A model generated the notes under the pieces. It saw only the letters and a list, made by a program, of their open reading frames with translations, made no database searches and was not told where the DNA came from. 59,808 nucleotides of DNA, from the IMG/VR virus record IMGVR_UViG_3300020045_013036, positions 1-59,808 of that record. One strand, 5' to 3'. Source of the DNA: a virus. Taxonomy: Duplodnaviria > Caudoviricetes. Below, in pieces: positions 1 to 30,087 of the stretch (position 1 is the first letter of the stretch; each line of letters begins with the position of its first letter). Both the position numbers and the translations under genes were made by a program.

Positions 1-121
1 ACACCCCGCTTGAGGTTGCTCAAGCCCAACAGGTTGAAGCTGCCGCCACCCCGCTACCGGTGATTGACACCGCCGCATTGGGCGCTGAGGTTGAGGCGGT
101 AACCGCCCCCCGCGTTGCTGC
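1..121. repeat. Terminal direct repeat (circular-assembly overlap), copy 1
   Basis: Bases 1-121 are identical to 59688-59808, and the giant ORF reads in frame across the junction. Confidence 0.95.
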
Positions 122-3100
122 CGCCAAGCAGGCACTGACCAAAGCGGGCTACCTGCCTGAAGTTGCACGCGATATGGTGACAACCAGCACCGCTGATTTG
201 CGCCGCCAACATGGTGAGATTGGTGCTGACCCCGCCCGCACCCAGATGGCTGAAGCCTTACTGGAACAACGCGGTGCGCCGGTTGCCCCGGAAGCCCGTG
301 CGGCCCGTGCTGATCTGGAGGCTGAAGTTCAGACACTAGCTAAAGCGGTTGGGCGCACACCAGCTTCACTGCGCCAACTCCTGCAAGGTGTCACCGAGCA
401 GCAAGCCCTGAACAACCTGAGCAACCCAACCTTGGCACAACAGCATCCGGTAATGCGGGCGCTGGGTGTGGTTCGTGGTTGGGATTTGGTTGAGCCGGGT
501 GTTGAGGAAATCACCGCCGCCGAGATTGAAGAACCGGTAATGGGTATTGATCAGGGGATGGTCAATGAGTTAAACGCCGAGCGCCTGCTCACCCGCAGCG
601 GTGCCATTGAGCTTTCCGATCGCTTGAATGATCTGGTTGTGGATAACGCCCCCGATGACGTGGTTGAGGCCATGATGAGTGTTTCTCGTTTCACACCGGG
701 TGAGGCTGAGGACAGCGCAATATTTGCTGAGGACAGTGCCGCGGTTCTGAAGTGGCTGCAATCTGAAGAAGGCGCGACTGTTGGTGGTTTGCGTTACGCC
801 GGGCAGTTGAATCGGGTACGTGACATTCTTGGCCTACGCTCGATTGGTAAAACCGAAAGCGCTTCGACCCCAGCCGATAACCAGCTTGAAGCAATGCTGC
901 GTGAAGCCAAGAACGCACCGGATGAGGTGGTTGATCGTGACGCCAAGATCGCCGAGTTGGAACGCATGGCCGGCGACATCACCATGACCCCGGTTCAGCG
1001 CCGCGGCTATCGCGCCCAAGCTGCCAACCTACGCACCGAGCGTGACGCTGAGGCTACCGCAAACACCCCGACCGCCAGCGGCACCCGCGCCGGTGTGCGC
1101 TCCGTTCAGCGTAACTTCGAGGCCCGCGCCCAAGCTGCCAAGCGCAGTGGTGTGCTGCAAAAGCTGGGTAAGTTCTGGCGCAATGTGATGGCTTCCCGAA
1201 ATGCCGGGCAGCGCACCCTGCCCAAGATTGACACCAGCGACCTGAAAGCCCCGATGCGTTCCGCGGTGACAACTGGCCGAGCCCTCCCCCAAGCGGCTTT
1301 GACCGAGATCAAGAATCGCTACAACGCCAAACTCCGCACGATGGCTGAGAAATGGGCCGCCACCAATGGTGCCAACATGGCCACATGGGTTGATCCGATC
1401 ATCAGCATTGAGCCGCAATACACAGGGCGATCCGCTGGTTTCAGTATGCGCCTGCACGGTCTCGGCCGCGGTGGCAATGAAAACCCCTACGCCATTCGAC
1501 CAACCCACCTCACCGCATCTTTCAGCGCTGACCACACCATTCACGCCTCAGCCCTGCAATCGGCACCGGGCGCCGCTGATTTGGCCTATCGCATTGCCGC
1601 TGAAGTTGGCGCTTTGCGTGGTGTCCCGTTCCCGTCAGATCAAACTTTGACCACGGTCAATCCGCTGCGCCGCCAACTGCAATCAATGTCGGCTGACACC
1701 CTGTTCGCCCCCGGCACTATCGACCCCCTCACATCGGGTGGGCGCCAAGGCCCCCAAGGTGTGCCGCCGGATGTGTGGCGCACCCTGACTGATGTTGAGA
1801 AGGTCGGCCTTAACGCCCTTCGTGCGGCCCACTCAATCACCGAAACCCGGGCGAACAGCGCCACCGGCGGTGAGTGGTTGGAGAATCTGGAGTTTGATCG
1901 TCAAGGTCGTATCGTGGCTGTCACCGATCCGAAGCCGATTGACAATCTGCGCACCGGCGTTCGCACCCCGTTCGGCTTTGCGCGCGGCACCGTGGTCACT
2001 GACCAAATGCTGAAGGATAAGATTGGTGAGACCAACCCGGCTACCGGCTACACTACCTTCGCACAGGAGTCCCGGGGTACGGGTGGTATTGGTGTCGATA
2101 CGGCCAAGCTGGGTATCCTGAACAACACCGTTCTGAATTTTATTGAGAACAACCCAGAAGCTGAGATTCCAGCATGGATGGGTACCGTTGCCCGAAGCAC
2201 TGGGCGCGCAATGGGTGGTTGGTTCTTCTCCGAAAACGAGGAAGCCGCTGCAACCGGGATCACCAAAACCGAAGCCGATCAACACTTGCGCGATGTGGTT
2301 GGCGACAAGGTGGCTCAGGTATTGCTTGACACTGGTCTCGTCCGCTTCGTGGAAACCCCGGCTGAACTAGCTGATCTCGGTGGTGTGCCACTGAGTTCGG
2401 TATCCGGCGCAGTGCAGGGTGCCACGCTGGATGACGGTTCAATCGTTTTGGTGGTGGGCAACCTGAGTGACAAGACAGCCGCCGCCGTGCTTCAGCATGA
2501 GGCCCTGCACGCCACACTGAAGGGCTTGGTGGGCGAGGGCACCTACACGCGCCTGATGGGCCGCCTTGATACCTTGCTGCAAGCTGGCGGGCAGGCTCAG
2601 TGGGTGAAGGATGCACGCGCCGCTGTTCCGGCCAACACCCCGGCCGAGAACGTCACGGAAGAGGTTGCAGCCTATGCGCTTGAGCAGTACCTGAAGAACC
2701 CGGAAAGCACCAATCCGATCGTCGCTTGGGCGCGTAACCTGATGTCGGCGATTCGCACCGCTATCATCCAGAGCAAGAGCTTGCCGGAAGCCCTCCGCGT
2801 GTGGGCTATCCAGAACATCCAACCCCAAGACTTCGCCCGCATGGCGATTGCCGGCTTGAAGAAGAGCGCTACGACCCAAGGCTCAATGCGGGAGAGCCGG
2901 CGCGACTTCGACGGTGAAATCGCAGCCCTGATGGAAGAGCACAAGGGCGCCACCCCCGAGCGCCGCGCCGAGATCAATCAGGAACTGAACAGCCTGAACA
3001 AGTTCCGCACCGCTGCGGCTGATATCAACTACGAGGAAAACACCAATGAGCCCGCAAACCTTCGAGGCGAAAATGCCCGAGTACCTGCTCAAGCTGAATA

Positions 3101-6100
3101 CGGCACAGCCCGGGAAGGCGCCGTTTCAATCGACGCAACCCACTTCAGCAACACCGAGCGAACCACCCTCAGCACATCGGCTTATGGACGAGGTGCAAAG
3201 GGTGAAGAAGCGGGCCGCCTAGCCACTCCGGAAAACGCAGACATTCGTGACCGCACCCACTTTTATGTGAATGAAGGGCAAGGCATCACCCCTGAACAGG
3301 GTGTCGGCAGCGTGGCGCACAATGTCAAGCTGAACAACATCTACGACATCAAGGCTGACAAGCTGGGCATCCGTGCGGCGGCCGGCGAGAACGTGAGCGC
3401 TATGGAACGCGCCGTGATTGCCGCCGGGTTCGATGGTTACTATGCCCCGCAAATCGCGAACAACCAAGGCGTCGCTGTGGTGATTGGCAAGCACAGCATC
3501 CCAGTTAGCGCCGGCCAAGGTGGCACCAATCTGGTTGCCCAGTTTGAAGGTGACACCTACGCCGCTAATCTGGCCAAGTCAAAGTTGCCGGGCGGGTCAA
3601 TGCTGGGTCGTGAGTGGTTGGCCAGCATCAAGGGTACCGAGTTCGACACCGCCAACGTGCGGGCTGAACTGGAGGTTCGCCAAGGCGAGCGCTTGTACCG
3701 TGACGATCTGCCGCGCTTCAACAAGTCGAGCAACGGGAACATGAAGTTCTCCATCGCACAGGAGGTCAATCAAACCGTGACCGCGGTTTCGGAATCACCG
3801 GCCCCGCGCGCTGAACTGAATGTGCTGGACAACCCCCACCGCGGCCCAGTTGAACGGGTGATGGAGATGGTGCGTGGCGTGCTGCAAGACAAGCATACGA
3901 CCTTGCGCCGCTTGCAGCAGTTGGCCGGCGTGACGGTGGATCAGATAAAGATGGACACCATGGGGGCGCTTGACCGCCTTGGTTCCAAGATGGCAACCAA
4001 GCAACGCTCACTGGTCATGGAGCCGCTGGCCGCCATGGAGAACATTCTGCAAGCTGGATACACCGGACCCAAGGCCGACGAAGAGGCTTATCACGACATC
4101 AACACCCTGTTGAAAATGCGCCATGTGCCCGAGTACAACGCTCGCATGGCCTTGATCAACCCGGCCAAGTATGACGCGAACGGTGAGCACCTGACGGGCC
4201 ATGACGCAGCCAACCCGGGTTCAGGTATCACCGATGAGGTTGCCTCCGCAGAGGTTGCCCGCCTTGAAGCTGGCCCCCACGCCAAGGTTCTCCTTGAAGC
4301 CGAAAAGACTTATCGCCAGATGATCCATGACCTTCAGGATTATGCTGTAGCTCAAGGGCTTGAGACCGCCGGCCTGATTGAAGCGTGGCGTGACCCTGAG
4401 ACCGGGTTCCCGAACTACACACCGTTCCATCGCGAACTTGATCTGGATGAGAACTTCGGTATTGGCACGACCAAGGGTGGGCAGGCATTCTCTCTGCGCA
4501 CCGGTATCACGCAGCGGGCCATGGGTTCGAAGGCTGAGGTCGTTGATCCGCTGGCCAGCACCCTGATTCTGGGTACCCGCATTGTTCGCCGCGGTGAGAA
4601 TGCAGCCGTCGCCCGCACGATGTTTGAGTTTGCCAAGGATGTCATCCCGAACTACCTGTCAAGCAACGGCGAGTTGAAGCCGATGTGGAGTGTAGATGTG
4701 GTGCCGCAAACCCGCGTGCTGAAGCGTGTCAATATCTACAAGACCCGTATGGCCAACGGCGAAATGTCACCTGAATTCTACAACCGGGAGCAGGCCCGCC
4801 TCTATGCTGACGCTCAGCAAACCATCTGGGTAAATCAAAACCCAGATGCTGATCCAACCACCAGTGGTATTCAGGTTGATCTGCTTGGCGCCGGTGAGCG
4901 GGTGTTCAGCCAACCAATCCCAGACACCATGAATCGCGACAACATCATGGTGATTCCGGTCAAAGGTGAAAACCACATCATCACCTTTGACGAGGGCTCC
5001 GCTGACGGGATGGCAATCTTGCGCGCCTTGAAGGGTAAGGATGGCCTCGGTGCCGGCGCCAAAGCTGCAAGCAAGTTGCTCACTCCGTTCCGCATGTTCT
5101 CCCGCTGGACGGTGGCAATGGCGACAGGGTACAACCCGATGTTCATGCCGTTCAACTCCATGCGTGACGTGTTTGGTTCGATGATCAACGCCAAGGATGG
5201 CGGGGTGCCGGGTTGGAGTTGGAAGGATAGTCGGCAAATTGCGTATCAGTTCCCAGCCGCTTTTGCTGGCATCAACGCGCGCCTGCATGAAGAGTTCCAA
5301 GCCCGCCATAGCAACACCGGCGCCGCCGCCGAAGCTGAGCCCGACTCATGGGGTTGGTGGATGGACCAAGCCGAGCGCGCTGGCGGCATGACAGGGGTTA
5401 TGGAACACATCGCTGAACCGGAAGAGGCCCGCACAATGCTGCGTCGCCTGTATGGTTCTGAGGTGGAGGCTCAAGCTCTTGGTCCAAACGAGGTCAAGGA
5501 TTGGTTGAGCCGGGGTCAAAACACCCTGCTTAAAATTGGTGACAAGTTCTATAAATTCGGTGAGGGTGAGACCAAGGGTGTTGGTGAGTGGGCTTCCAAG
5601 CAAATCGCCGCACGCATCAAGCGTTTCAACTCTGCATCTGAGGCTGCCACACGCACTATCGTGTTCAAGAAGGCAACCGAAAAGTACATGGAGCAGGGTC
5701 ACAGTCAAGCCGAGGCAATGCAACTGGCGGCCGTGGTGTCGAAGAACATCTCGACCAACTTCAACCGGCGCGGTAGTTTCTCGACCGCATTGAATCAACT
5801 GTTCCCGTTCTTTAATGCTGCGGTGCAAGGTTCCGCCCGACTGGCTGAGGCCCTGTTCGAAAAGGAAACCTACACCATCAACAAGGATGGCCACGTCGTC
5901 ACGGACCAGCGCACCCGCATCACCCCGTTCGGTAAAAACGTGCTCAAGGGCATGGCGTCAATCGGCGCGGCGCAGGCTGCCCTTCTGTTCGCTGGCGGGT
6001 TTGATGATGACGAGCCGCCGCAATCGGTGAAAGACCGCAACTTCATCGTGCCGCTGGGTGACAAAAAATACTTGATGATCCCCATGCCACACGGCTTCAA

Positions 6101-6977
6101 CACGCTGGTTAATTTCGGCCGTGAGATGACGCAAACTATGGGTGCTGCGGCAAGTGGCAATTTCAAGCAGGCCCGCAAACACTTCAACGCCGCAACGCTG
6201 GGTCAGATTTCAGCCTTCAACCCGTTCGGCGGGCAAGGCGGTCTGGGGCTTACCATCAGCCCGGCATTGAGCGACCCGGCAATCGCCCTGTACTTCAACG
6301 AGGATGCGTTTGGCCGCCCGATTGCCCGCGAAGACTTCAACCCGCGCAACCAGACCCCGGGCTTCACGCGCACCAAGGAGGGTGGCAGCACCAGTGGGCG
6401 GGCTGTGGCCCAACTTCTGAACAGCATCTCAGGTGGCAACGAGGATCAGCCGGGTGGTATCAGCCCAACAGGTGACCAGATTGACTACCTGCTTGGCGAA
6501 CTGGGTGGTGGCCTGACCCGTGAAGTGCTGAAGGCTGGTAAGGTTGGGTGGGCCGGCGTCGAGGACGTGACCAGCACACCGCGTGAAGAGTTGCCGGTCA
6601 GCAAGGTGCCGCTGATTGGCCGCCTCTACGGTGAAGCCAAGGGGGCGGTCGGCATTCGCACCCGGGCCTTCGAAGTCAGTGGGGAACTGAACCAACTGAA
6701 CAACCGCTACAAGGGTTTGATGGAGCGCGCCGCGGCTACACCGGATGCGGCTGAGAAGGAGGCACTGCGACAAAAGGCCCGGGAGTTCAAGGCTGACAAC
6801 CCTGAAATCTCTTTGGCTGATGACTTCAACCGCTTCTACACTTCGGACAGCAAGGCCAAGAAGCAACGTGCGCTGGCCCGGGGTAACAGTGAGGTGGGTA
6901 AGGTGAATCGCATCACTGAGTCCCAGACCGAGAAGGCGACCGAGTTGCTTGAAAAGTACGACCTGTTGGCTGATTAA
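1..6977 (+). CDS. Giant polyvalent/internal virion protein, 3' part (true start 58250; ~2804 aa total); zincin-like HEALH motif, ART-like segment, C-terminal LPD38-like domain
   Basis: ORF 60..6977 is in frame with the ORF opening at ATG 58250. Motifs: VLQHEALH...EEVAAY, AAGFDGYY, KDRNFIVPLGDKKYLMIPMPHGF. It is the last gene of the ejection-protein cluster. Confidence 0.75.
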   Translation, partial: TPLEVAQAQQVEAAATPLPVIDTAALGAEVEAVTAPRVAAAKQALTKAGYLPEVARDMVTTSTADLRRQHGEIGADPARTQMAEALLEQRGAPVAPEARAARADLEAEVQTLAKAVGRTPASLRQLLQGVTEQQALNNLSNPTLAQQHPVMRALGVVRGWDLVEPGVEEITAAEIEEPVMGIDQGMVNELNAERLLTRSGAIELSDRLNDLVVDNAPDDVVEAMMSVSRFTPGEAEDSAIFAEDSAAVLKWLQSEEGATVGGLRYAGQLNRVRDILGLRSIGKTESASTPADNQLEAMLREAKNAPDEVVDRDAKIAELERMAGDITMTPVQRRGYRAQAANLRTERDAEATANTPTASGTRAGVRSVQRNFEARAQAAKRSGVLQKLGKFWRNVMASRNAGQRTLPKIDTSDLKAPMRSAVTTGRALPQAALTEIKNRYNAKLRTMAEKWAATNGANMATWVDPIISIEPQYTGRSAGFSMRLHGLGRGGNENPYAIRPTHLTASFSADHTIHASALQSAPGAADLAYRIAAEVGALRGVPFPSDQTLTTVNPLRRQLQSMSADTLFAPGTIDPLTSGGRQGPQGVPPDVWRTLTDVEKVGLNALRAAHSITETRANSATGGEWLENLEFDRQGRIVAVTDPKPIDNLRTGVRTPFGFARGTVVTDQMLKDKIGETNPATGYTTFAQESRGTGGIGVDTAKLGILNNTVLNFIENNPEAEIPAWMGTVARSTGRAMGGWFFSENEEAAATGITKTEADQHLRDVVGDKVAQVLLDTGLVRFVETPAELADLGGVPLSSVSGAVQGATLDDGSIVLVVGNLSDKTAAAVLQHEALHATLKGLVGEGTYTRLMGRLDTLLQAGGQAQWVKDARAAVPANTPAENVTEEVAAYALEQYLKNPESTNPIVAWARNLMSAIRTAIIQSKSLPEALRVWAIQNIQPQDFARMAIAGLKKSATTQGSMRESRRDFDGEIAALMEEHKGATPERRAEINQELNSLNKFRTAAADINYEENTNEPANLRGENARVPAQAEYGTAREGAVSIDATHFSNTERTTLSTSAYGRGAKGEEAGRLATPENADIRDRTHFYVNEGQGITPEQGVGSVAHNVKLNNIYDIKADKLGIRAAAGENVSAMERAVIAAGFDGYYAPQIANNQGVAVVIGKHSIPVSAGQGGTNLVAQFEGDTYAANLAKSKLPGGSMLGREWLASIKGTEFDTANVRAELEVRQGERLYRDDLPRFNKSSNGNMKFSIAQEVNQTVTAVSESPAPRAELNVLDNPHRGPVERVMEMVRGVLQDKHTTLRRLQQLAGVTVDQIKMDTMGALDRLGSKMATKQRSLVMEPLAAMENILQAGYTGPKADEEAYHDINTLLKMRHVPEYNARMALINPAKYDANGEHLTGHDAANPGSGITDEVASAEVARLEAGPHAKVLLEAEKTYRQMIHDLQDYAVAQGLETAGLIEAWRDPETGFPNYTPFHRELDLDENFGIGTTKGGQAFSLRTGITQRAMGSKAEVVDPLASTLILGTRIVRRGENAAVARTMFEFAKDVIPNYLSSNGELKPMWSVDVVPQTRVLKRVNIYKTRMANGEMSPEFYNREQARLYADAQQTIWVNQNPDADPTTSGIQVDLLGAGERVFSQPIPDTMNRDNIMVIPVKGENHIITFDEGSADGMAILRALKGKDGLGAGAKAASKLLTPFRMFSRWTVAMATGYNPMFMPFNSMRDVFGSMINAKDGGVPGWSWKDSRQIAYQFPAAFAGINARLHEEFQARHSNTGAAAEAEPDSWGWWMDQAERAGGMTGVMEHIAEPEEARTMLRRLYGSEVEAQALGPNEVKDWLSRGQNTLLKIGDKFYKFGEGETKGVGEWASKQIAARIKRFNSASEAATRTIVFKKATEKYMEQGHSQAEAMQLAAVVSKNISTNFNRRGSFSTALNQLFPFFNAAVQGSARLAEALFEKETYTINKDGHVVTDQRTRITPFGKNVLKGMASIGAAQAALLFAGGFDDDEPPQSVKDRNFIVPLGDKKYLMIPMPHGFNTLVNFGREMTQTMGAAASGNFKQARKHFNAATLGQISAFNPFGGQGGLGLTISPALSDPAIALYFNEDAFGRPIAREDFNPRNQTPGFTRTKEGGSTSGRAVAQLLNSISGGNEDQPGGISPTGDQIDYLLGELGGGLTREVLKAGKVGWAGVEDVTSTPREELPVSKVPLIGRLYGEAKGAVGIRTRAFEVSGELNQLNNRYKGLMERAAATPDAAEKEALRQKAREFKADNPEISLADDFNRFYTSDSKAKKQRALARGNSEVGKVNRITESQTEKATELLEKYDLLAD

Positions 6978-24291: not shown

Positions 24292-24533
24292 TCCCCCTGT
24301 TTAGGTGGTTGCTCATTCTCCGGATCAAACTGGGGCCAGTATTCCTCCCAGAAAGACGAAGAACCACCCACTGATCCAGCGAAATCCTTGAGCACTTCGA
24401 TGGCTTTCTTCAGGCGCACGCTTTCACTTGTCAGTTCAGCCACCCGACCTCGCAAATAGCGGTTGTCCGTGATCAGGGAGTCGTTCATTTCGGCCAGCTT
24501 TTCAGGGCTGGTCTTGCTTGCGTCAATGGTCAT
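24288..24533 (-). CDS. Hypothetical protein
   Basis: 4-bp overlaps with neighbours. Confidence 0.6.
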   Translation of the reverse strand: MTIDASKTSPEKLAEMNDSLITDNRYLRGRVAELTSESVRLKKAIEVLKDFAGSVGGSSSFWEEYWPQFDPENEQPPKQGE

Positions 24534-24799
24534 TTCGATTCCTTTAGGTGATTCACCACACAGGCGGCGGCCTTCCAGATTTCTTGGCGCAGCGCTGCAA
24601 ACATATCACCATGATGGTCATACTGGGTGTAGGTGCCACCCAGTGTTTCCGCGCAGAACCTGCAAAGCTCCTGCTCCTTCTTCTTCTCGCCGGTAGGTGA
24701 GTGCCCGGCACCAAAGCTGCTGGTCGGGACTTCACACCCACAACTATCACAGGCCACAGGGTAAAGTTCCAAATACTTCTGGCTGTATTTAATGGTCAT
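24530..24799 (-). CDS. Hypothetical Zn-finger protein
   Basis: CDSC...CRFC. Confidence 0.6.
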   Translation of the reverse strand: MTIKYSQKYLELYPVACDSCGCEVPTSSFGAGHSPTGEKKKEQELCRFCAETLGGTYTQYDHHGDMFAALRQEIWKAAACVVNHLKESK

Positions 24800-26387: not shown

Positions 26388-26684
26388 TTATCGAACCCTC
26401 GTCAAAGCTACGCGATAGATGTCATATTGGCGGCTGGTCAGGTCGGTGGCGTGATCCAGAACAATGCCTGTGAGGGTGCGCCCGGCCAGCTTGTGAAAGT
26501 CATCAACGTAGAGCGGCGACACAATTTGCAGGTCTTCACGCCCCAGCTTGCGAGCCAAATCCCGGGGCCAAGCGAGGTGCTGATTCACCCAAATATAGAT
26601 GGCCCCTTTCGGGGCATCCTGCATTTGCTTGGTGGTGCGCCCGGTGCCACGGAGGTGAGGCGGGTCAAAGTCAGTGCGGCTCAT
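26388..26684 (-). CDS. Small degenerate P-loop-like protein
   Basis: RGTGRTT near the N-terminus and IVLDHA near the C-terminus. Confidence 0.5.
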   Translation of the reverse strand: MSRTDFDPPHLRGTGRTTKQMQDAPKGAIYIWVNQHLAWPRDLARKLGREDLQIVSPLYVDDFHKLAGRTLTGIVLDHATDLTSRQYDIYRVALTRVR

Positions 26685-26778
26685 AGCGGTGCATTCTGGC
26701 CGATGGTGACAAAGGACTTCACGGTGTCGCCGGGGCGGCAGTGGCACAGCTTAATCGGCTTTTCCTTATTTACGATGA

Positions 26779-27297
26779 TCATTCGAGCCACCCCTCAACA
26801 CGCAGGGTCCGGATCAGGCGAGCCGCCTCTTCACGGCTCAGGATGCGCTTGAAGGTCACATCCACAGCGGTGTCATACGCCAAGGTCAAACGAACAACCG
26901 GGGCGGCAGCGTCAAGGTTGATACCCTGTTCGGCAGCCCAGACCTTGAGCTCAGCTTGTTGGGTGGTGCGCTCAGCGGTGCGCGCCTGAATAGTCACCAC
27001 CTTGGCTAGGCGAGCCTCTACCTCAGCGATGACGCGATCAACCGGCCAACCACCCTTGATGGTGCGCTTGAAAACCTTCTTATGATAGTAGCCGATGCTA
27101 ACGTATGCCTGCCCATCGCTTGCGCGGTAGCTTCGAGTAACATCCACATTGAGCGGGATCACATCCACCTCCCCCTTGGTGTGAATGTAGCTGAAGCGGA
27201 GGCCCGTTGAGGGCGGATTCATTCCAAACAAATCGGGCCGGGCGGCGATCAGCAAGGCGCCAAGCTCCTTGGTTGCGGTTTCGCGGTCCATTTTCAC
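26779..27297 (-). CDS. Hypothetical protein
   Basis: ORF track. Confidence 0.6.
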   Translation of the reverse strand: MKMDRETATKELGALLIAARPDLFGMNPPSTGLRFSYIHTKGEVDVIPLNVDVTRSYRASDGQAYVSIGYYHKKVFKRTIKGGWPVDRVIAEVEARLAKVVTIQARTAERTTQQAELKVWAAEQGINLDAAAPVVRLTLAYDTAVDVTFKRILSREEAARLIRTLRVEGWLE

Positions 27298-27518
27298 TCT
27301 CCTTTGGCTAAGCGTTTAGCCGCTTTGCGTTGGCGCTTTGCTTCAGCCTTTGCCAATGCTGCATTGTCTTTTTCAGCGCGGCGGCCGGTGTTGATCGGCT
27401 TCTGGGTGTCACCCCATTCAGGGCGCACGACTGGCACGGCCAGCGCGGCCAGCGCGGCGGCAAGTGCCAAGCTGTATGGGGCGCCCCCAACAACAGCGAT
27501 GCGTTTATGGTCCATCAT
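27294..27518 (-). CDS. Hypothetical protein with basic C-terminus
   Basis: AGGAG SD; AKAEAKRQRKAAKR tail. Confidence 0.6.
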   Translation of the reverse strand: MMDHKRIAVVGGAPYSLALAAALAALAVPVVRPEWGDTQKPINTGRRAEKDNAALAKAEAKRQRKAAKRLAKGE

Positions 27519-27547
27519 TTTCTCCTGTTCAGATGCGACGAAGCCCC

Positions 27548-27585
27548 AGTTTATCAGACCGGGGCTTCAGTGTCAAGGACTAACG
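27548..27585 (-). promoter_or_regulatory. sigma70-like promoter plus operator
   Basis: TTGACA-17-TAAACT; TGTCAAGGACTAACG at 27571-27585. Confidence 0.65.
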
Positions 27586-27773
27586 TAACGCTCAGCCAAT
27601 GCCAAGTAGGCGCGACAGGTTACGAAACAGCGGTCTGTCAGGCAGGATTGAGCAAAGCGGGCATCCTCCCAAGCCTTACCCCACCCCTTGTTTCGCTTGT
27701 TCATTGGCACCCTGTCCAGCGCAACCAACACAGCATTAATGCGTTCGGCTAGGGTTGCCATTTTAGCTGCCAC
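27573..27773 (-). CDS. Hypothetical protein
   Basis: ORF track. Confidence 0.5.
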   Translation of the reverse strand: MAAKMATLAERINAVLVALDRVPMNKRNKGWGKAWEDARFAQSCLTDRCFVTCRAYLALAERYVSP

Positions 27774-28062
27774 CCTTCACAAACGGATCGGCAACCACCC
27801 GCTCATCGGGGGACAGGTGCAACGAACGGCGCAGGGCACCCACACCCCGAGCCCACTTGCGCACAATGCTGGAACCGTAGTCAATCAGGTAAGGCTTGTT
27901 GCCGATATCGAAGGCCCAGCCTTGGAACAGGTAGAGCTTGGCGCCCGCGGTGTCGGGGATGCGAACCTCGTACTCATTAATTTGACGAGCTAGTTCAGCG
28001 GCTTCAGCTTGGCTCAGGGTGGCGTTCGGATTGAAGCGGTGGAATTCTCGGACAATACTCAT
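27763..28062 (-). CDS. Hypothetical early protein directly downstream of the hammerhead
   Basis: GGAG SD at 28072-28069. Confidence 0.65.
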   Translation of the reverse strand: MSIVREFHRFNPNATLSQAEAAELARQINEYEVRIPDTAGAKLYLFQGWAFDIGNKPYLIDYGSSIVRKWARGVGALRRSLHLSPDERVVADPFVKGGS

Positions 28063-28070
28063 TTTGTTCT

Positions 28071-28124
28071 CCGTGTTTCGCCCGTCTTGGGCTCATCAGT
28101 GCCGCAGCTGGCGGCAGACACCGG
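28071..28124 (-). ncRNA. Type III hammerhead ribozyme
   Basis: Minus strand reads GUGUC^UGCCGC-cagcu-GCGGCA-CUGAUGA-GCCC-aagac-GGGC-GAA-ACAC: complete core, GUC triplet and three stems; intergenic and sense to the operon. Confidence 0.88.
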
Positions 28125-28146
28125 GGGCGGCGCACCCCCATTTGGT

Positions 28147-28548
28147 TCAGTGGTTGATCAGGGTGACCGGGGTATCGGCGGCAGGGTGGGGATAGCGCAG
28201 GGTGGCGTCGAAGTTCTCCAAGAACTCCTTGCGCTTAACCCAGATGATAGGGGTGCCAAAGGTGAATGCCGTTCCCGCGGTAACCATGCCATACGTAATT
28301 GGAATTTCGGCGCGCAGGTGTTGCAGGGCTTCGGCCAAGTAGGGCCAATCATGTACCTTGTTGAAGGCGGCAAGGCAATCCAGCATCAAGCCTTGATCAG
28401 GGGGCAGGGTGTCGCGCAGGTTCTCAATGTTGCGGGCGATGATGGCAGCCTTGAGGGTGTCAGGCAGTGCCGCATCATTGAGGCGGTGCTCGATGGCGCC
28501 GATTTCCTTCAGGCTGCCTACCTTGTTGAAGTTGGTGGTCATGTTCAT
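28147..28548 (-). CDS. Hypothetical early protein
   Basis: AAGGAG SD. Confidence 0.65.
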   Translation of the reverse strand: MNMTTNFNKVGSLKEIGAIEHRLNDAALPDTLKAAIIARNIENLRDTLPPDQGLMLDCLAAFNKVHDWPYLAEALQHLRAEIPITYGMVTAGTAFTFGTPIIWVKRKEFLENFDATLRYPHPAADTPVTLINH

Positions 28549-28781
28549 TGCTCCTTGATACGGGTGACGGTGACAGAAAAGGTGCGATGGCGACTATTCC
28601 AGCCGGCCCGGCTGACGCGCGGGCTGAGCAGGAACCAAACCTCATCACCTGCATAACCCTGAGCCCATGCGGCCACGTAAGCGATGCGGGCGGCCAAAAG
28701 ACGGGTGGGGGCGATGATGGTCTTGGTGCCGTCATTGACGCTGGTGATGGCGATTTGGTATTGAGTGCGCGGCATGTTCAT
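28545..28781 (-). CDS. Hypothetical early protein
   Basis: AGGAG SD. Confidence 0.6.
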   Translation of the reverse strand: MNMPRTQYQIAITSVNDGTKTIIAPTRLLAARIAYVAAWAQGYAGDEVWFLLSPRVSRAGWNSRHRTFSVTVTRIKEQ

Positions 28782-28786
28782 TGCTC

Positions 28787-28978
28787 CTAGTTGATGATGG
28801 CGCGGCGAACCGCGTCAATGGTAAAACTATCGCCATTCGGCAATTCGATCAGGCGCTGGCAGGCGTCGAGCCGGTTACCGTCGCGATCAACATGCAAACA
28901 GCGAGAATCCGGATGATCAGCAATGGTGCGCTCGCGCTCGCCAATCAGCGGCAAAACCCATGCAGGTAAGGTGACCAT
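28787..28978 (-). CDS. Hypothetical early protein
   Basis: ORF track. Confidence 0.5.
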   Translation of the reverse strand: MVTLPAWVLPLIGERERTIADHPDSRCLHVDRDGNRLDACQRLIELPNGDSFTIDAVRRAIIN

Positions 28979-28980
28979 GA

Positions 28981-29193
28981 TCAATACCCCAAACGGTTGG
29001 AAGGCCAAACGCCAGCGCTGCGGGGGCGGTCAAGGTCTTGCAGCGTAACCCACACGTAACAGGCGCCGTAAATATTCGTGTTCGAACCTTCCGAAACATG
29101 AGTGATGCGGCCGCGGCCGGCAGGTGTGCCGCGGTCAGCCGGGAAAGAAACTACTTGCCCCACTTGGAGGCGGCGAGCTTGTGCAATGTTCAT
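28981..29193 (-). CDS. Hypothetical early protein (SH3-like pattern)
   Basis: LQVGQVVSF...GRITHV...VWPSNRL. Confidence 0.55.
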   Translation of the reverse strand: MNIAQARRLQVGQVVSFPADRGTPAGRGRITHVSEGSNTNIYGACYVWVTLQDLDRPRSAGVWPSNRLGY

Positions 29194-29438
29194 GGTTGGC
29201 TCCGACGTGAGGTAGGTTCGAATACGAAAGCGGTGTCGCCGTTGGGGAGTTCTCCGGACAGCAACGAGCCAGTCCAGCCCAGCTTGTCGCAAAGAGCCTT
29301 GGCGGCGAAACCGTGGCGAGTCACGCCGTCAGGGATGTTGAAGGCCGAAAGGGTGATTGAGCCCGAGGCACACCAAGCCTTGATGCGAGTTGGGCGGGTG
29401 TTGGTGTAGGGTAATGTGCGAACTTGGATGGCTTGCAT
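29190..29438 (-). CDS. Conserved phage early protein
   Basis: MQAIQVRTLPYTNTRPTRIKA...AAKALCDKLGW; GGAG SD. Confidence 0.65.
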   Translation of the reverse strand: MQAIQVRTLPYTNTRPTRIKAWCASGSITLSAFNIPDGVTRHGFAAKALCDKLGWTGSLLSGELPNGDTAFVFEPTSRRSQP

Positions 29439-29503
29439 TTTGATCTCCAATACTGCGTTAAGGTGCTTCACAAAACCCCCGAGTAGGGGTTTCAGGTAGA
29501 ACC

Positions 29504-29782
29504 CTAAGCGCCAACAATCAGGCCAAGAGCCGCATTCAGGGTGGCGTCATGGCGATACCCGGAAATGATATCGGCGCCGTAACGGGTGGCAGTCCAGACA
29601 ATGCGGCGGCCCGGGGTGTAGTGGGCAACCATGACGATGCCGTGGGCAGCATAAAAACGATCGGCGCTGTGGGCTTGGACGCTGGAACCGTCAGCAAGGT
29701 GGCCGCGGTAAAGGTCGGTCGGTGTAGCGGCGCAGGGGGCGTTGATGGTGTCCCAGCGGATAGAGGGCGTGGTATTGATCAT
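29504..29782 (-). CDS. Hypothetical early protein
   Basis: GGAG SD; first gene after the promoter at 29847-29875. Confidence 0.6.
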   Translation of the reverse strand: MINTTPSIRWDTINAPCAATPTDLYRGHLADGSSVQAHSADRFYAAHGIVMVAHYTPGRRIVWTATRYGADIISGYRHDATLNAALGLIVGA

Positions 29783-29846
29783 GGTAAATACTCCGGTGTT
29801 CAGGCTCGCCACCTTGGAGGCTTGGAGCGGGTTGGTTGATGCTTCC

Positions 29847-29875
29847 ATTATAGCCGTTAGTGCTTGACGCGTCAA
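29847..29875 (-). promoter_or_regulatory. Near-consensus sigma70 early promoter with operator in the spacer
   Basis: TTGACG-CGTCAAGCACTAACGGC-TATAAT. Confidence 0.85.
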
Positions 29876-30087
29876 GGGGTTTCTGCGCCCCGACTTATGC
29901 GGCGAATCAGCGAAACGCAATTGGCAAACGCCCGTTTGTCGGAAGGCGTGCCGCCGGTGATAACGAAAGTGCCCGTTGATTCAAGGTAGAGTTTCAGGTG
30001 GTTACCCTTGGACAATTCCACGCTCGAAAAAGTGACGCCCGCTTTGGCTTGTAGGTCTTCAATGTATTTCCGTTGTTGCTTGGTCAT
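29872..30087 (-). CDS. HicA-like (dsRBD-fold) small protein
   Basis: SKGNHLKL...VITGGTPSDKRAFAN...IRR. Confidence 0.5.
   Translation of the reverse strand: MTKQQRKYIEDLQAKAGVTFSSVELSKGNHLKLYLESTGTFVITGGTPSDKRAFANCVSLIRRISRGAETP

Follow-up and report, generated by a model that had tools for sequence, protein, structure and literature searches.

A type III hammerhead ribozyme and an accessory hairpin between two small genes of a phage genome, with a predicted role in separating cistrons

The window, i.e., the whole stretch of DNA analysed here, spans all 59,808 bp of a complete virus record that carries direct terminal repeats. On its minus strand, from ~31.5 kb down to 7.7 kb, many small ORFs are followed by genes for a primase, a helicase, an exonuclease and a DNA polymerase, the last sharing only ~36% identity with its counterparts in Seuratvirus-like, Vibrio and Achromobacter siphoviruses, and on the plus strand terminase, portal and tail genes extend from 32.6 kb. 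A giant ORF on the plus strand (3-6977, at least 2,324 aa) runs past the left end of the window, one portion being similar to a DarB-like antirestriction PHROG (E 3.6e-11). The spacer considered here sits in the leftward, replication-side arm of the genome, where it separates by 84 nt two co-directional ORFs of 133 aa and 99 aa; a megablast search with positions 26500-30000 returned no close record from the phage collection. PHROGs and Pfam gave nothing for either flanking protein or for most of the small neighbours, and the start of the 99-aa ORF at 28062 is backed by an N-terminus conserved in 6 homologues. Judged by position and gene order, it is plausible that the flanking genes are early. 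On the same strand, 1.7 kb upstream of the ribozyme, lies a near-consensus sigma-70-like promoter with 11/12 hexamer matches (29875-29847, minus strand), at which the transcript cut by the ribozyme could start. Within the spacer, the elements follow one another in the order stop, hairpin, ribozyme, SD and start, namely:

28548-28147, minus strand: upstream ORF of 133 aa, without hits in PHROGs or Pfam
28149-28147, minus strand: TGA stop codon of the 133-aa ORF, 25 nt before stem III
28139-28123, minus strand: accessory GC-rich hairpin, 7 bp with a 3-nt loop, present in the MFE fold; -13.2 kcal/mol in the hairpin survey
28121-28073, minus strand: type III hammerhead ribozyme, from Rfam alignment, MFE fold, descriptor scan and relatives
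28121-28118, minus strand: 5' strand of stem III, GUGU, pairing with ACAC at 28076-28073
28117, minus strand: C17, in the GUC cleavage triplet
between 28117 and 28116, minus strand: predicted self-cleavage site, 3' of C17, from the hammerhead mechanism applied to the RF00008 alignment
28116-28111 with 28105-28100, minus strand: stem I, 6 bp with a 5-nt loop
28099-28093, minus strand: CUGAUGA
28092-28089 with 28083-28080, minus strand: stem II, 4 bp with a 5-nt loop
28079-28077, minus strand: GAA
28076-28073, minus strand: 3' strand of stem III, ACAC
28072-28069, minus strand: GGAG Shine-Dalgarno (SD), adjoining stem III and predicted unpaired
28072-28063, minus strand: GGAG SD and 6-nt spacer, directly after stem III
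28062-28060, minus strand: ATG of the downstream ORF, 10 nt after stem III
28062-27763, minus strand: downstream ORF of 99 aa, from a small family without hits in PHROGs or Pfam

The hammerhead core is complete, with C3 U4 G5 A6 N7 G8 A9, G12 A13 A14, the A15.1-U16.1 pair (A28076 with U28118) and H17. The pairs closing the core are standard, i.e., U-A in stem I, G-C in stem II and A-U in stem III, and mispairs beside the core are absent. As such, 28121-28073 shows the three helices and the freedom from core-adjacent mispairs by which, in the available parts of the paper, hammerheads were accepted by Perreault et al. (2011; PMC3088659). In both the Rfam alignment and the MFE fold, loops close stems I and II and stem III, of 4 bp, is open. 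A preliminary description, drawn up from the sequence without database searches, had read a canonical type III hammerhead on the minus strand with its cut between 28117 and 28116; every element is found where it had been placed and C17 of the alignment falls on 28117, the cut itself being a prediction. The pairing of GUGU with ACAC in stem III also stands, as does the position of GGAG directly behind the 3' strand of that stem and ahead of a gene starting at 28062. The same description had extended stem III by GG/CC, and this part is weaker than it was put: the extension requires a G.G mismatch or a bulge, and the Rfam alignment marks two non-standard pairs there. Between loops I and II, inspection by eye found at most 2-3 possible pairs, which differ between the window and the variant of its relatives.

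The RF00008 model aligned over its full length (1-54 of 54) at 28124-28070 with 36.5 bits, corresponding to an E-value of 1.6e-6 locally, 7.5e-8 for RF00008 alone and 3.2e-4 for the whole window against all 4227 Rfam families. A search with the Rfam hammerhead models, which the preliminary description had named as a check, thus speaks for the ribozyme by its E-value and falls short by score, the gathering score of RF00008, a member of clan CL00010, being 48.5 bits. At gathering thresholds Rfam returned 0 matches over the whole window, the ribozyme being seen in E-value mode only, and none of the 4227 families gave another RNA in the window at E 0.1 or better. When 20 other phage type III loci were compared with RF00008, 18 of them gave 20 matches of 30.1-52.7 bits, just one exceeding 48.5 bits; since 19/20 also fall short, the cut-off is a poor test for phage members. 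With a descriptor of our own, a single type III hammerhead was recovered from the window, its C17 at 28117, and the motif occurred in 0/300 dinucleotide-preserving shuffles even with minimal stems allowed. The stem lengths of 6 bp (I) and 4 bp (II) are the commonest in the surveyed sample of viral contigs, among the matches listed. By its sequence, 28121-28073 is a genuine, canonical type III hammerhead, for which cleavage is predicted.

The MFE fold of the 84-nt spacer consists of the upstream hairpin and the three hammerhead helices and leaves GGAG unpaired. The hairpin at 28139-28123 ends 1 nt (an unpaired G) before stem III, so that the tail from the hairpin to the predicted 3' end measures 6 nt. 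The energy of the fold is unremarkable (z -1.0), and the spacer is therefore not singled out by thermodynamic stability alone.

Relatives of the locus show which parts of this arrangement are kept. The family of the 99-aa protein is tiny (6 proteins, 62-89% identity), and a 90%-identical copy is encoded at loci L002, L003, L094, L104, L127 and L128, of which L127 is the same contig as L002, all with one common spacer variant. The ribozyme is thus known in two sequence variants only, with covariation almost nil, and between these the 1 kb around it is ~85% identical in DNA. Window and relatives agree in 48 of the 49 ribozyme bases (98%), the sole change lying in loop I, and stems I and II are invariant. 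Beside stem III, the G.G of the window is replaced by A-U in the relatives, where A-U and C-G extend the stem to 6 bp and the score to 41.8 bits. In the accessory hairpin, changes affect five bases at the centre and leave the arms intact. Between stem III and the ATG, the sequence is heavily diverged and 6 nt longer in the relatives, with an SD-like AGGA further downstream. The conserved parts are the ribozyme and the hairpin stem; the juxtaposition of the SD is not conserved. A small ORF of 45 aa starting at 28141 was considered as the cause of this conservation and rejected by eye, as it has no SD, stops after ~23 codons in the relatives and would undergo non-synonymous changes at the hairpin centre. 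Of the homologues of the 99-aa gene at greater distance (L129-L132, 45-56% identity), 0/4 are preceded by a hammerhead, and the ribozyme therefore does not follow this gene family.

In the relatives there is also a type II hammerhead (L136:1479-1539), which matches RF02276 with 34.2 bits (cut-off 37; E 1.8e-4) and lies 1.7 kb upstream of the type III ribozyme, between a stop codon and a GGAG with its ATG. The syntenic spacer of the window (30527-30456, minus strand), behind which an ORF of 46-48 aa is found (30461-30315), lacks a hammerhead core and contains instead an A-tract, a hairpin and a U-run resembling an intrinsic terminator. Descent of this spacer from a type II hammerhead by decay is not supported, the MAFFT alignment being poor; what the sequences suggest is a replacement at the same position. 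Such a swap is compatible with the two, hammerhead module and terminator-like hairpin, being able to take each other's place. On the other side of the ribozyme-flanked gene, ~1.3 kb with four small ORFs 3' of the 99-aa gene in the window (27763-26441, minus strand) are replaced by ~180 bp in L002 (L002:3299-3479), apparently a mosaic junction. Further along, ~45 bp within 24500-24571 of the window match three places in L002:5243-5532 at 95-100% identity, pointing to what may be a short repeated element in the region.

To place the locus among other phage hammerheads, viral contigs were scanned for a hammerhead core with the stem II of the window (set 1, at least 123 loci), and a replicate was obtained with a different stem II (set 2, at least 127 loci, comprising 123 distinct matches with 8 unparsed). 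A simple descriptor of our own parsed set 1, among the matches listed, into 53 distinct type III and 57-58 type I hammerheads with 2 unparsed, the one-unit difference in type I being a matter of de-duplication; the counts below come from this mechanical descriptor with an ORF rule, from two stem II sequences and from crude clustering, and are to be read accordingly. Type I and type III alike lie between co-directional ORFs in set 1, among the matches listed. From the end of the ribozyme to the next ORF start (at least 40 codons), the median is 18 nt for type III, measurable in 50/53, and 19.5 nt for type I, again among the matches listed; among these same matches an ORF starts within 30 nt after stem III in 45/53 type III, the value in the window being 10 nt. 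The two topologies differ on their upstream side. For type I, the gap from the preceding stop codon to the ribozyme has a median of -1 nt among the matches listed (n=45), the two abutting or overlapping, with medians of -1 and 0 in sets 1 and 2, respectively; for type III, among the matches listed, it is 24 nt (n=41), compared with 25 in the window.

This gap generally holds a hairpin. The 30 nt upstream of type III hammerheads fold with a median of -11.6 kcal/mol and reach -8 kcal/mol or lower in 36/53, against -3.3 kcal/mol and 3/58 for type I, among the matches listed, and the background from the same loci is 20% of 2,101 other 30-nt windows. A stable hairpin 0-3 nt before stem III occurs in 35/54 type III hammerheads of set 1, the window included, among the matches listed; this class feature follows our own survey definition and is not a curated family. 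In set 2, the adjacent stable hairpin was present in 26/39 type III vs 1/76 type I, among the matches listed. With all 225 cases clustered by common flank 10-mers, so as to lessen the counting of related phages, it was found in 47/78 type III clusters vs 3/109 type I clusters, among the matches listed. The window shows the features of this type III module, i.e., a short same-strand spacer, a nearby start and a hairpin gap of 1 nt, and phage type III hammerheads seem to be regularly accompanied by a stable hairpin on their 5' side. A description of such a hairpin was not found in the available portions of the literature on phage hammerheads (PMC3088659, PMC6155905 and PMC6765202), and the accessory hairpin as a regular part of phage type III hammerheads is tentatively put forward as a new point.

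As for the reason behind the hairpin, two candidates are not favoured. Coaxial support of a very short stem III is at odds with a hairpin frequency independent of stem III length, namely 29/42 for 3-4 bp, 28/44 for 5-6 bp and 3/6 for 7 bp or more, among the matches listed, and a need for ribosome spacing is at odds with the tolerance of type I for abutting or overlapping stop codons. In many type III hammerheads of AT-richer contigs, the accessory hairpin is near-identical (GUGUC/GACAC arms with a UUCAAA-like loop; e.g., L018, L124, L157, L164, L230 and L259), which suggests either one widespread phage lineage or a hairpin perhaps conserved in sequence, beyond its conserved structure. Some contigs carry 2-4 hammerheads within 1-7 kb (L122, L015, L038, L017 and L078-L080, the last three being one contig), L122 having four type I copies, and resemble the clustered arrangements described in prophages.

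Hammerhead ribozymes cut 3' of residue 17 and leave a 2',3'-cyclic phosphate and a 5'-OH. Applied to the window, this mechanism predicts a 2',3'-cyclic phosphate on 28117 and a 5'-OH on 28116. For the motif we have the sequence itself, the statistics, the conservation, the surroundings and the repeated occurrence of the module among other phage contigs, all observed directly; from these we infer that the RNA is actually cleaved at 28117/28116, and that cleavage would in turn affect stability and translation. The ribozyme would fold as RNA polymerase reads through and would cut between 28117 and 28116. The upstream RNA would then end in the stable hairpin, six nucleotides and the cyclic phosphate, and the downstream RNA would begin with its 5'-OH directly on the stem I hairpin, would keep the compact ribozyme body and would present SD and AUG within 10 nt after that body. 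Taken jointly, the type III hammerhead and its accessory hairpin probably separate the two cistrons by self-cleavage, physically and while transcription goes on, with both new ends capped by a hairpin. Being thus separate and capped, the two halves could differ in their stability and translation. The protein-free processing of a polycistronic phage transcript that the preliminary description had in mind fits the sequence and the relatives, as well as the hypothesis set out in the available parts of PMC3088659.

The place of the accessory hairpin in such processing may be understood from what each topology leaves behind. Cleavage of a type I or II hammerhead leaves a closed stem III hairpin 1 nt from the new 3' end; with type III, nothing of stem III but its short 5' strand remains on the upstream product, to which the accessory hairpin would restore a 3'-terminal hairpin. 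In bacterial mRNA decay, 3' exonucleases are blocked by 3' hairpins, and a cyclic phosphate end makes polyadenylation impossible. At the other end, a 5'-terminal hairpin or the lack of a 5' phosphate lets an RNA escape the 5'-end-dependent RNase E pathway. The effect of a 5'-OH depends on the host, being stabilising with respect to RNase E and destabilising with RNase J1, as in the case of glmS; in RNase J hosts, the downstream RNA may be destabilised instead. One design rule might hold for all phage hammerhead topologies, i.e., that both products are capped by a stable hairpin near the cut, types I and II using their own closed stem III and type III recruiting a separate accessory hairpin, in such a way that the upstream product would always end in a hairpin a few nucleotides from the 2',3'-cyclic phosphate. 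We hold this generalisation tentatively, at rather under an even chance; it is in line with the finding that, at the spacer holding a terminator-like hairpin and U-run in the window, the relatives have a type II hammerhead. If true, the module would do the work of a terminator and a new 5' UTR together, independently of transcription, and the hairpin would be a part of phage type III hammerheads that has a function and had so far escaped notice.

Other explanations deserve to be weighed against the separation of cistrons by self-cleavage. The preliminary description had cast cleavage as a switch, unmasking an SD held by a stem III extended through CC/GG, with the upstream hairpin competing for the CC. 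The GGAG does start right after the 3' strand of stem III, and with 0 nt between the SD and a bulky three-way junction, 30S binding could be impeded until cleavage lets stem III come apart; however, the MFE fold before cleavage already has GGAG unpaired and the hairpin closed alongside stem III, the CC/GG extension requires the G.G mismatch, and the relatives extend stem III differently, with A-U and C-G, and have their AGGA behind a spacer 6 nt longer. Since the median from stem III to start is 18 nt in the 53 other type III hammerheads, among the matches listed, the SD is usually clear of the ribozyme. Unmasking of the SD is on these grounds unlikely and is abandoned as the main reading, and so is the competition between hairpin and stem III, as both coexist in the MFE fold and an adjacent, non-overlapping hairpin is regular in type III. 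Another possibility is that the ribozyme mainly marks, or travels as a passenger at, the boundaries of gene cassettes (mosaic junctions), spreading with or between cassettes of small accessory genes with little effect on expression. It would agree with the 0/4 distant homologues of the 99-aa gene carrying a ribozyme, with the lack in the window of the type II hammerhead found 1.7 kb upstream in the relatives, with the differing 1.3-kb block 3' of the 99-aa gene in window and L002, and with flanked genes that are small and not constant according to the available parts of PMC3088659 and PMC6155905. Against this stands a placement both precise and repeated (stop, hairpin, ribozyme, ~18 nt, start), together with a hairpin specific to one topology, which points to selection on the RNA products rather than hitch-hiking and makes a mere passenger quite improbable.

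That the sequence is a chance or decayed hammerhead-like stretch, inactive at physiological Mg2+ and conserved through the closeness of the relatives, is very improbable. A score below the Rfam cut-off (36.5 vs 48.5), a single other variant at ~85% DNA identity over 1 kb, the lack of an identified tertiary contact and a fold z of only -1.0 could all be called upon in its favour, but the E-value of 3.2e-4 and the 0/300 shuffles speak against chance, the ribozyme body is 98% identical next to a heavily changed hairpin centre and SD spacer, and dozens of other phage hammerheads occupy the same context. Even more remote is the notion that the hairpin at 28139-28123 is primarily a terminator, either antisense or leaky in the sense direction, and lies near the ribozyme incidentally. 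A consensus scan does flag 28123-28139 on the plus strand, antisense to the genes, as a hairpin followed by a T-rich tail, and the hairpin might also stop antisense transcription; yet in the sense direction (minus strand) the hairpin lacks the U-run that an intrinsic terminator would have behind it, terminator-like matches in the region number 11 vs 10.6 in shuffles, and a hairpin 0-3 nt from stem III is found repeatedly with type III and not with type I.

The processing interpretation preferred here is, in the main, a hypothesis already published (PMC3088659, in its available parts), and the arrangement is already known from many phages, to which the window adds a member and not a new kind of element. 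Its value lies in offering a clean single-copy example in a complete phage genome, together with a natural variant that alters stem III and moves the SD. It also leads to a testable rule, namely that an accessory 3'-capping hairpin goes with type III hammerheads and not with type I, which gives concrete meaning to polycistronic processing in terms of the stability of both cleavage products. Such a rule could improve the annotation of phage ribozymes, where the Rfam cut-off misses most type III members.

Compared with the members described by RF00008, the ribozyme has the consensus core in full, the GUC triplet, a stem I of 6 bp and a stem II of 4 bp that are both closed, and an open stem III; unlike them, it scores below the cut-off, has a stem III of only 4 bp and is preceded 1 nt upstream by an extra hairpin that lies outside the family model. 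According to the available parts of Perreault et al. (2011; PMC3088659), hundreds of hammerheads occur in bacteria, many of them in prophages and phage intergenic regions, clustered prophage hammerheads cleave in vitro and in vivo, and it was proposed that long phage transcripts are thereby processed into operon- or gene-length mRNAs. In the same source, a hammerhead of haloarchaeal virus HF1/HF2 precedes a start codon by 13 nt, and a 5' end was mapped close to its cleavage site. Reviews, in the parts available, describe the flanked ORFs as small and non-conserved and the bacterial and phage roles as still open (PMC6155905; PMC6765202). Like the phage and prophage intergenic hammerheads of PMC3088659, in its available parts, the present one lies between co-directional small genes and near the next start (10 nt, compared with 13 nt in HF1/HF2). 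Unlike the clustered ones, as far as the available account of them goes, it is a single ribozyme in the genome of the window, the relatives having two (types II and III).

In the early mRNA of T7, RNase III cuts between cistrons, so that the message upstream of the cut is left with a 3'-terminal hairpin. A site for this enzyme is a double-stranded stem of about two helical turns, and its products bear a 5'-phosphate and a 3'-OH. The likeness to the window is in the intercistronic cut, here predicted, that leaves a 3' hairpin on the upstream message. Unlike T7 RNase III sites, the helices of the window are of 7, 6, 4 and 4 bp, so that the 84-nt spacer, with 7 bp for its longest helix in the MFE fold, is devoid of a long double-stranded stem; the cut would be made by the RNA itself and would leave a 5'-OH and a 2',3'-cyclic phosphate. 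RiboJ, an engineered ribozyme insulator said to go back to Lou et al. in 2012, is reportedly a type III hammerhead with an extra hairpin downstream. As in RiboJ, a type III hammerhead stands just upstream of an SD in the window, and cleavage would give the downstream mRNA a defined, context-free 5' end; unlike RiboJ, the present ribozyme is natural, and its extra hairpin lies upstream, where it would stay with the upstream product.
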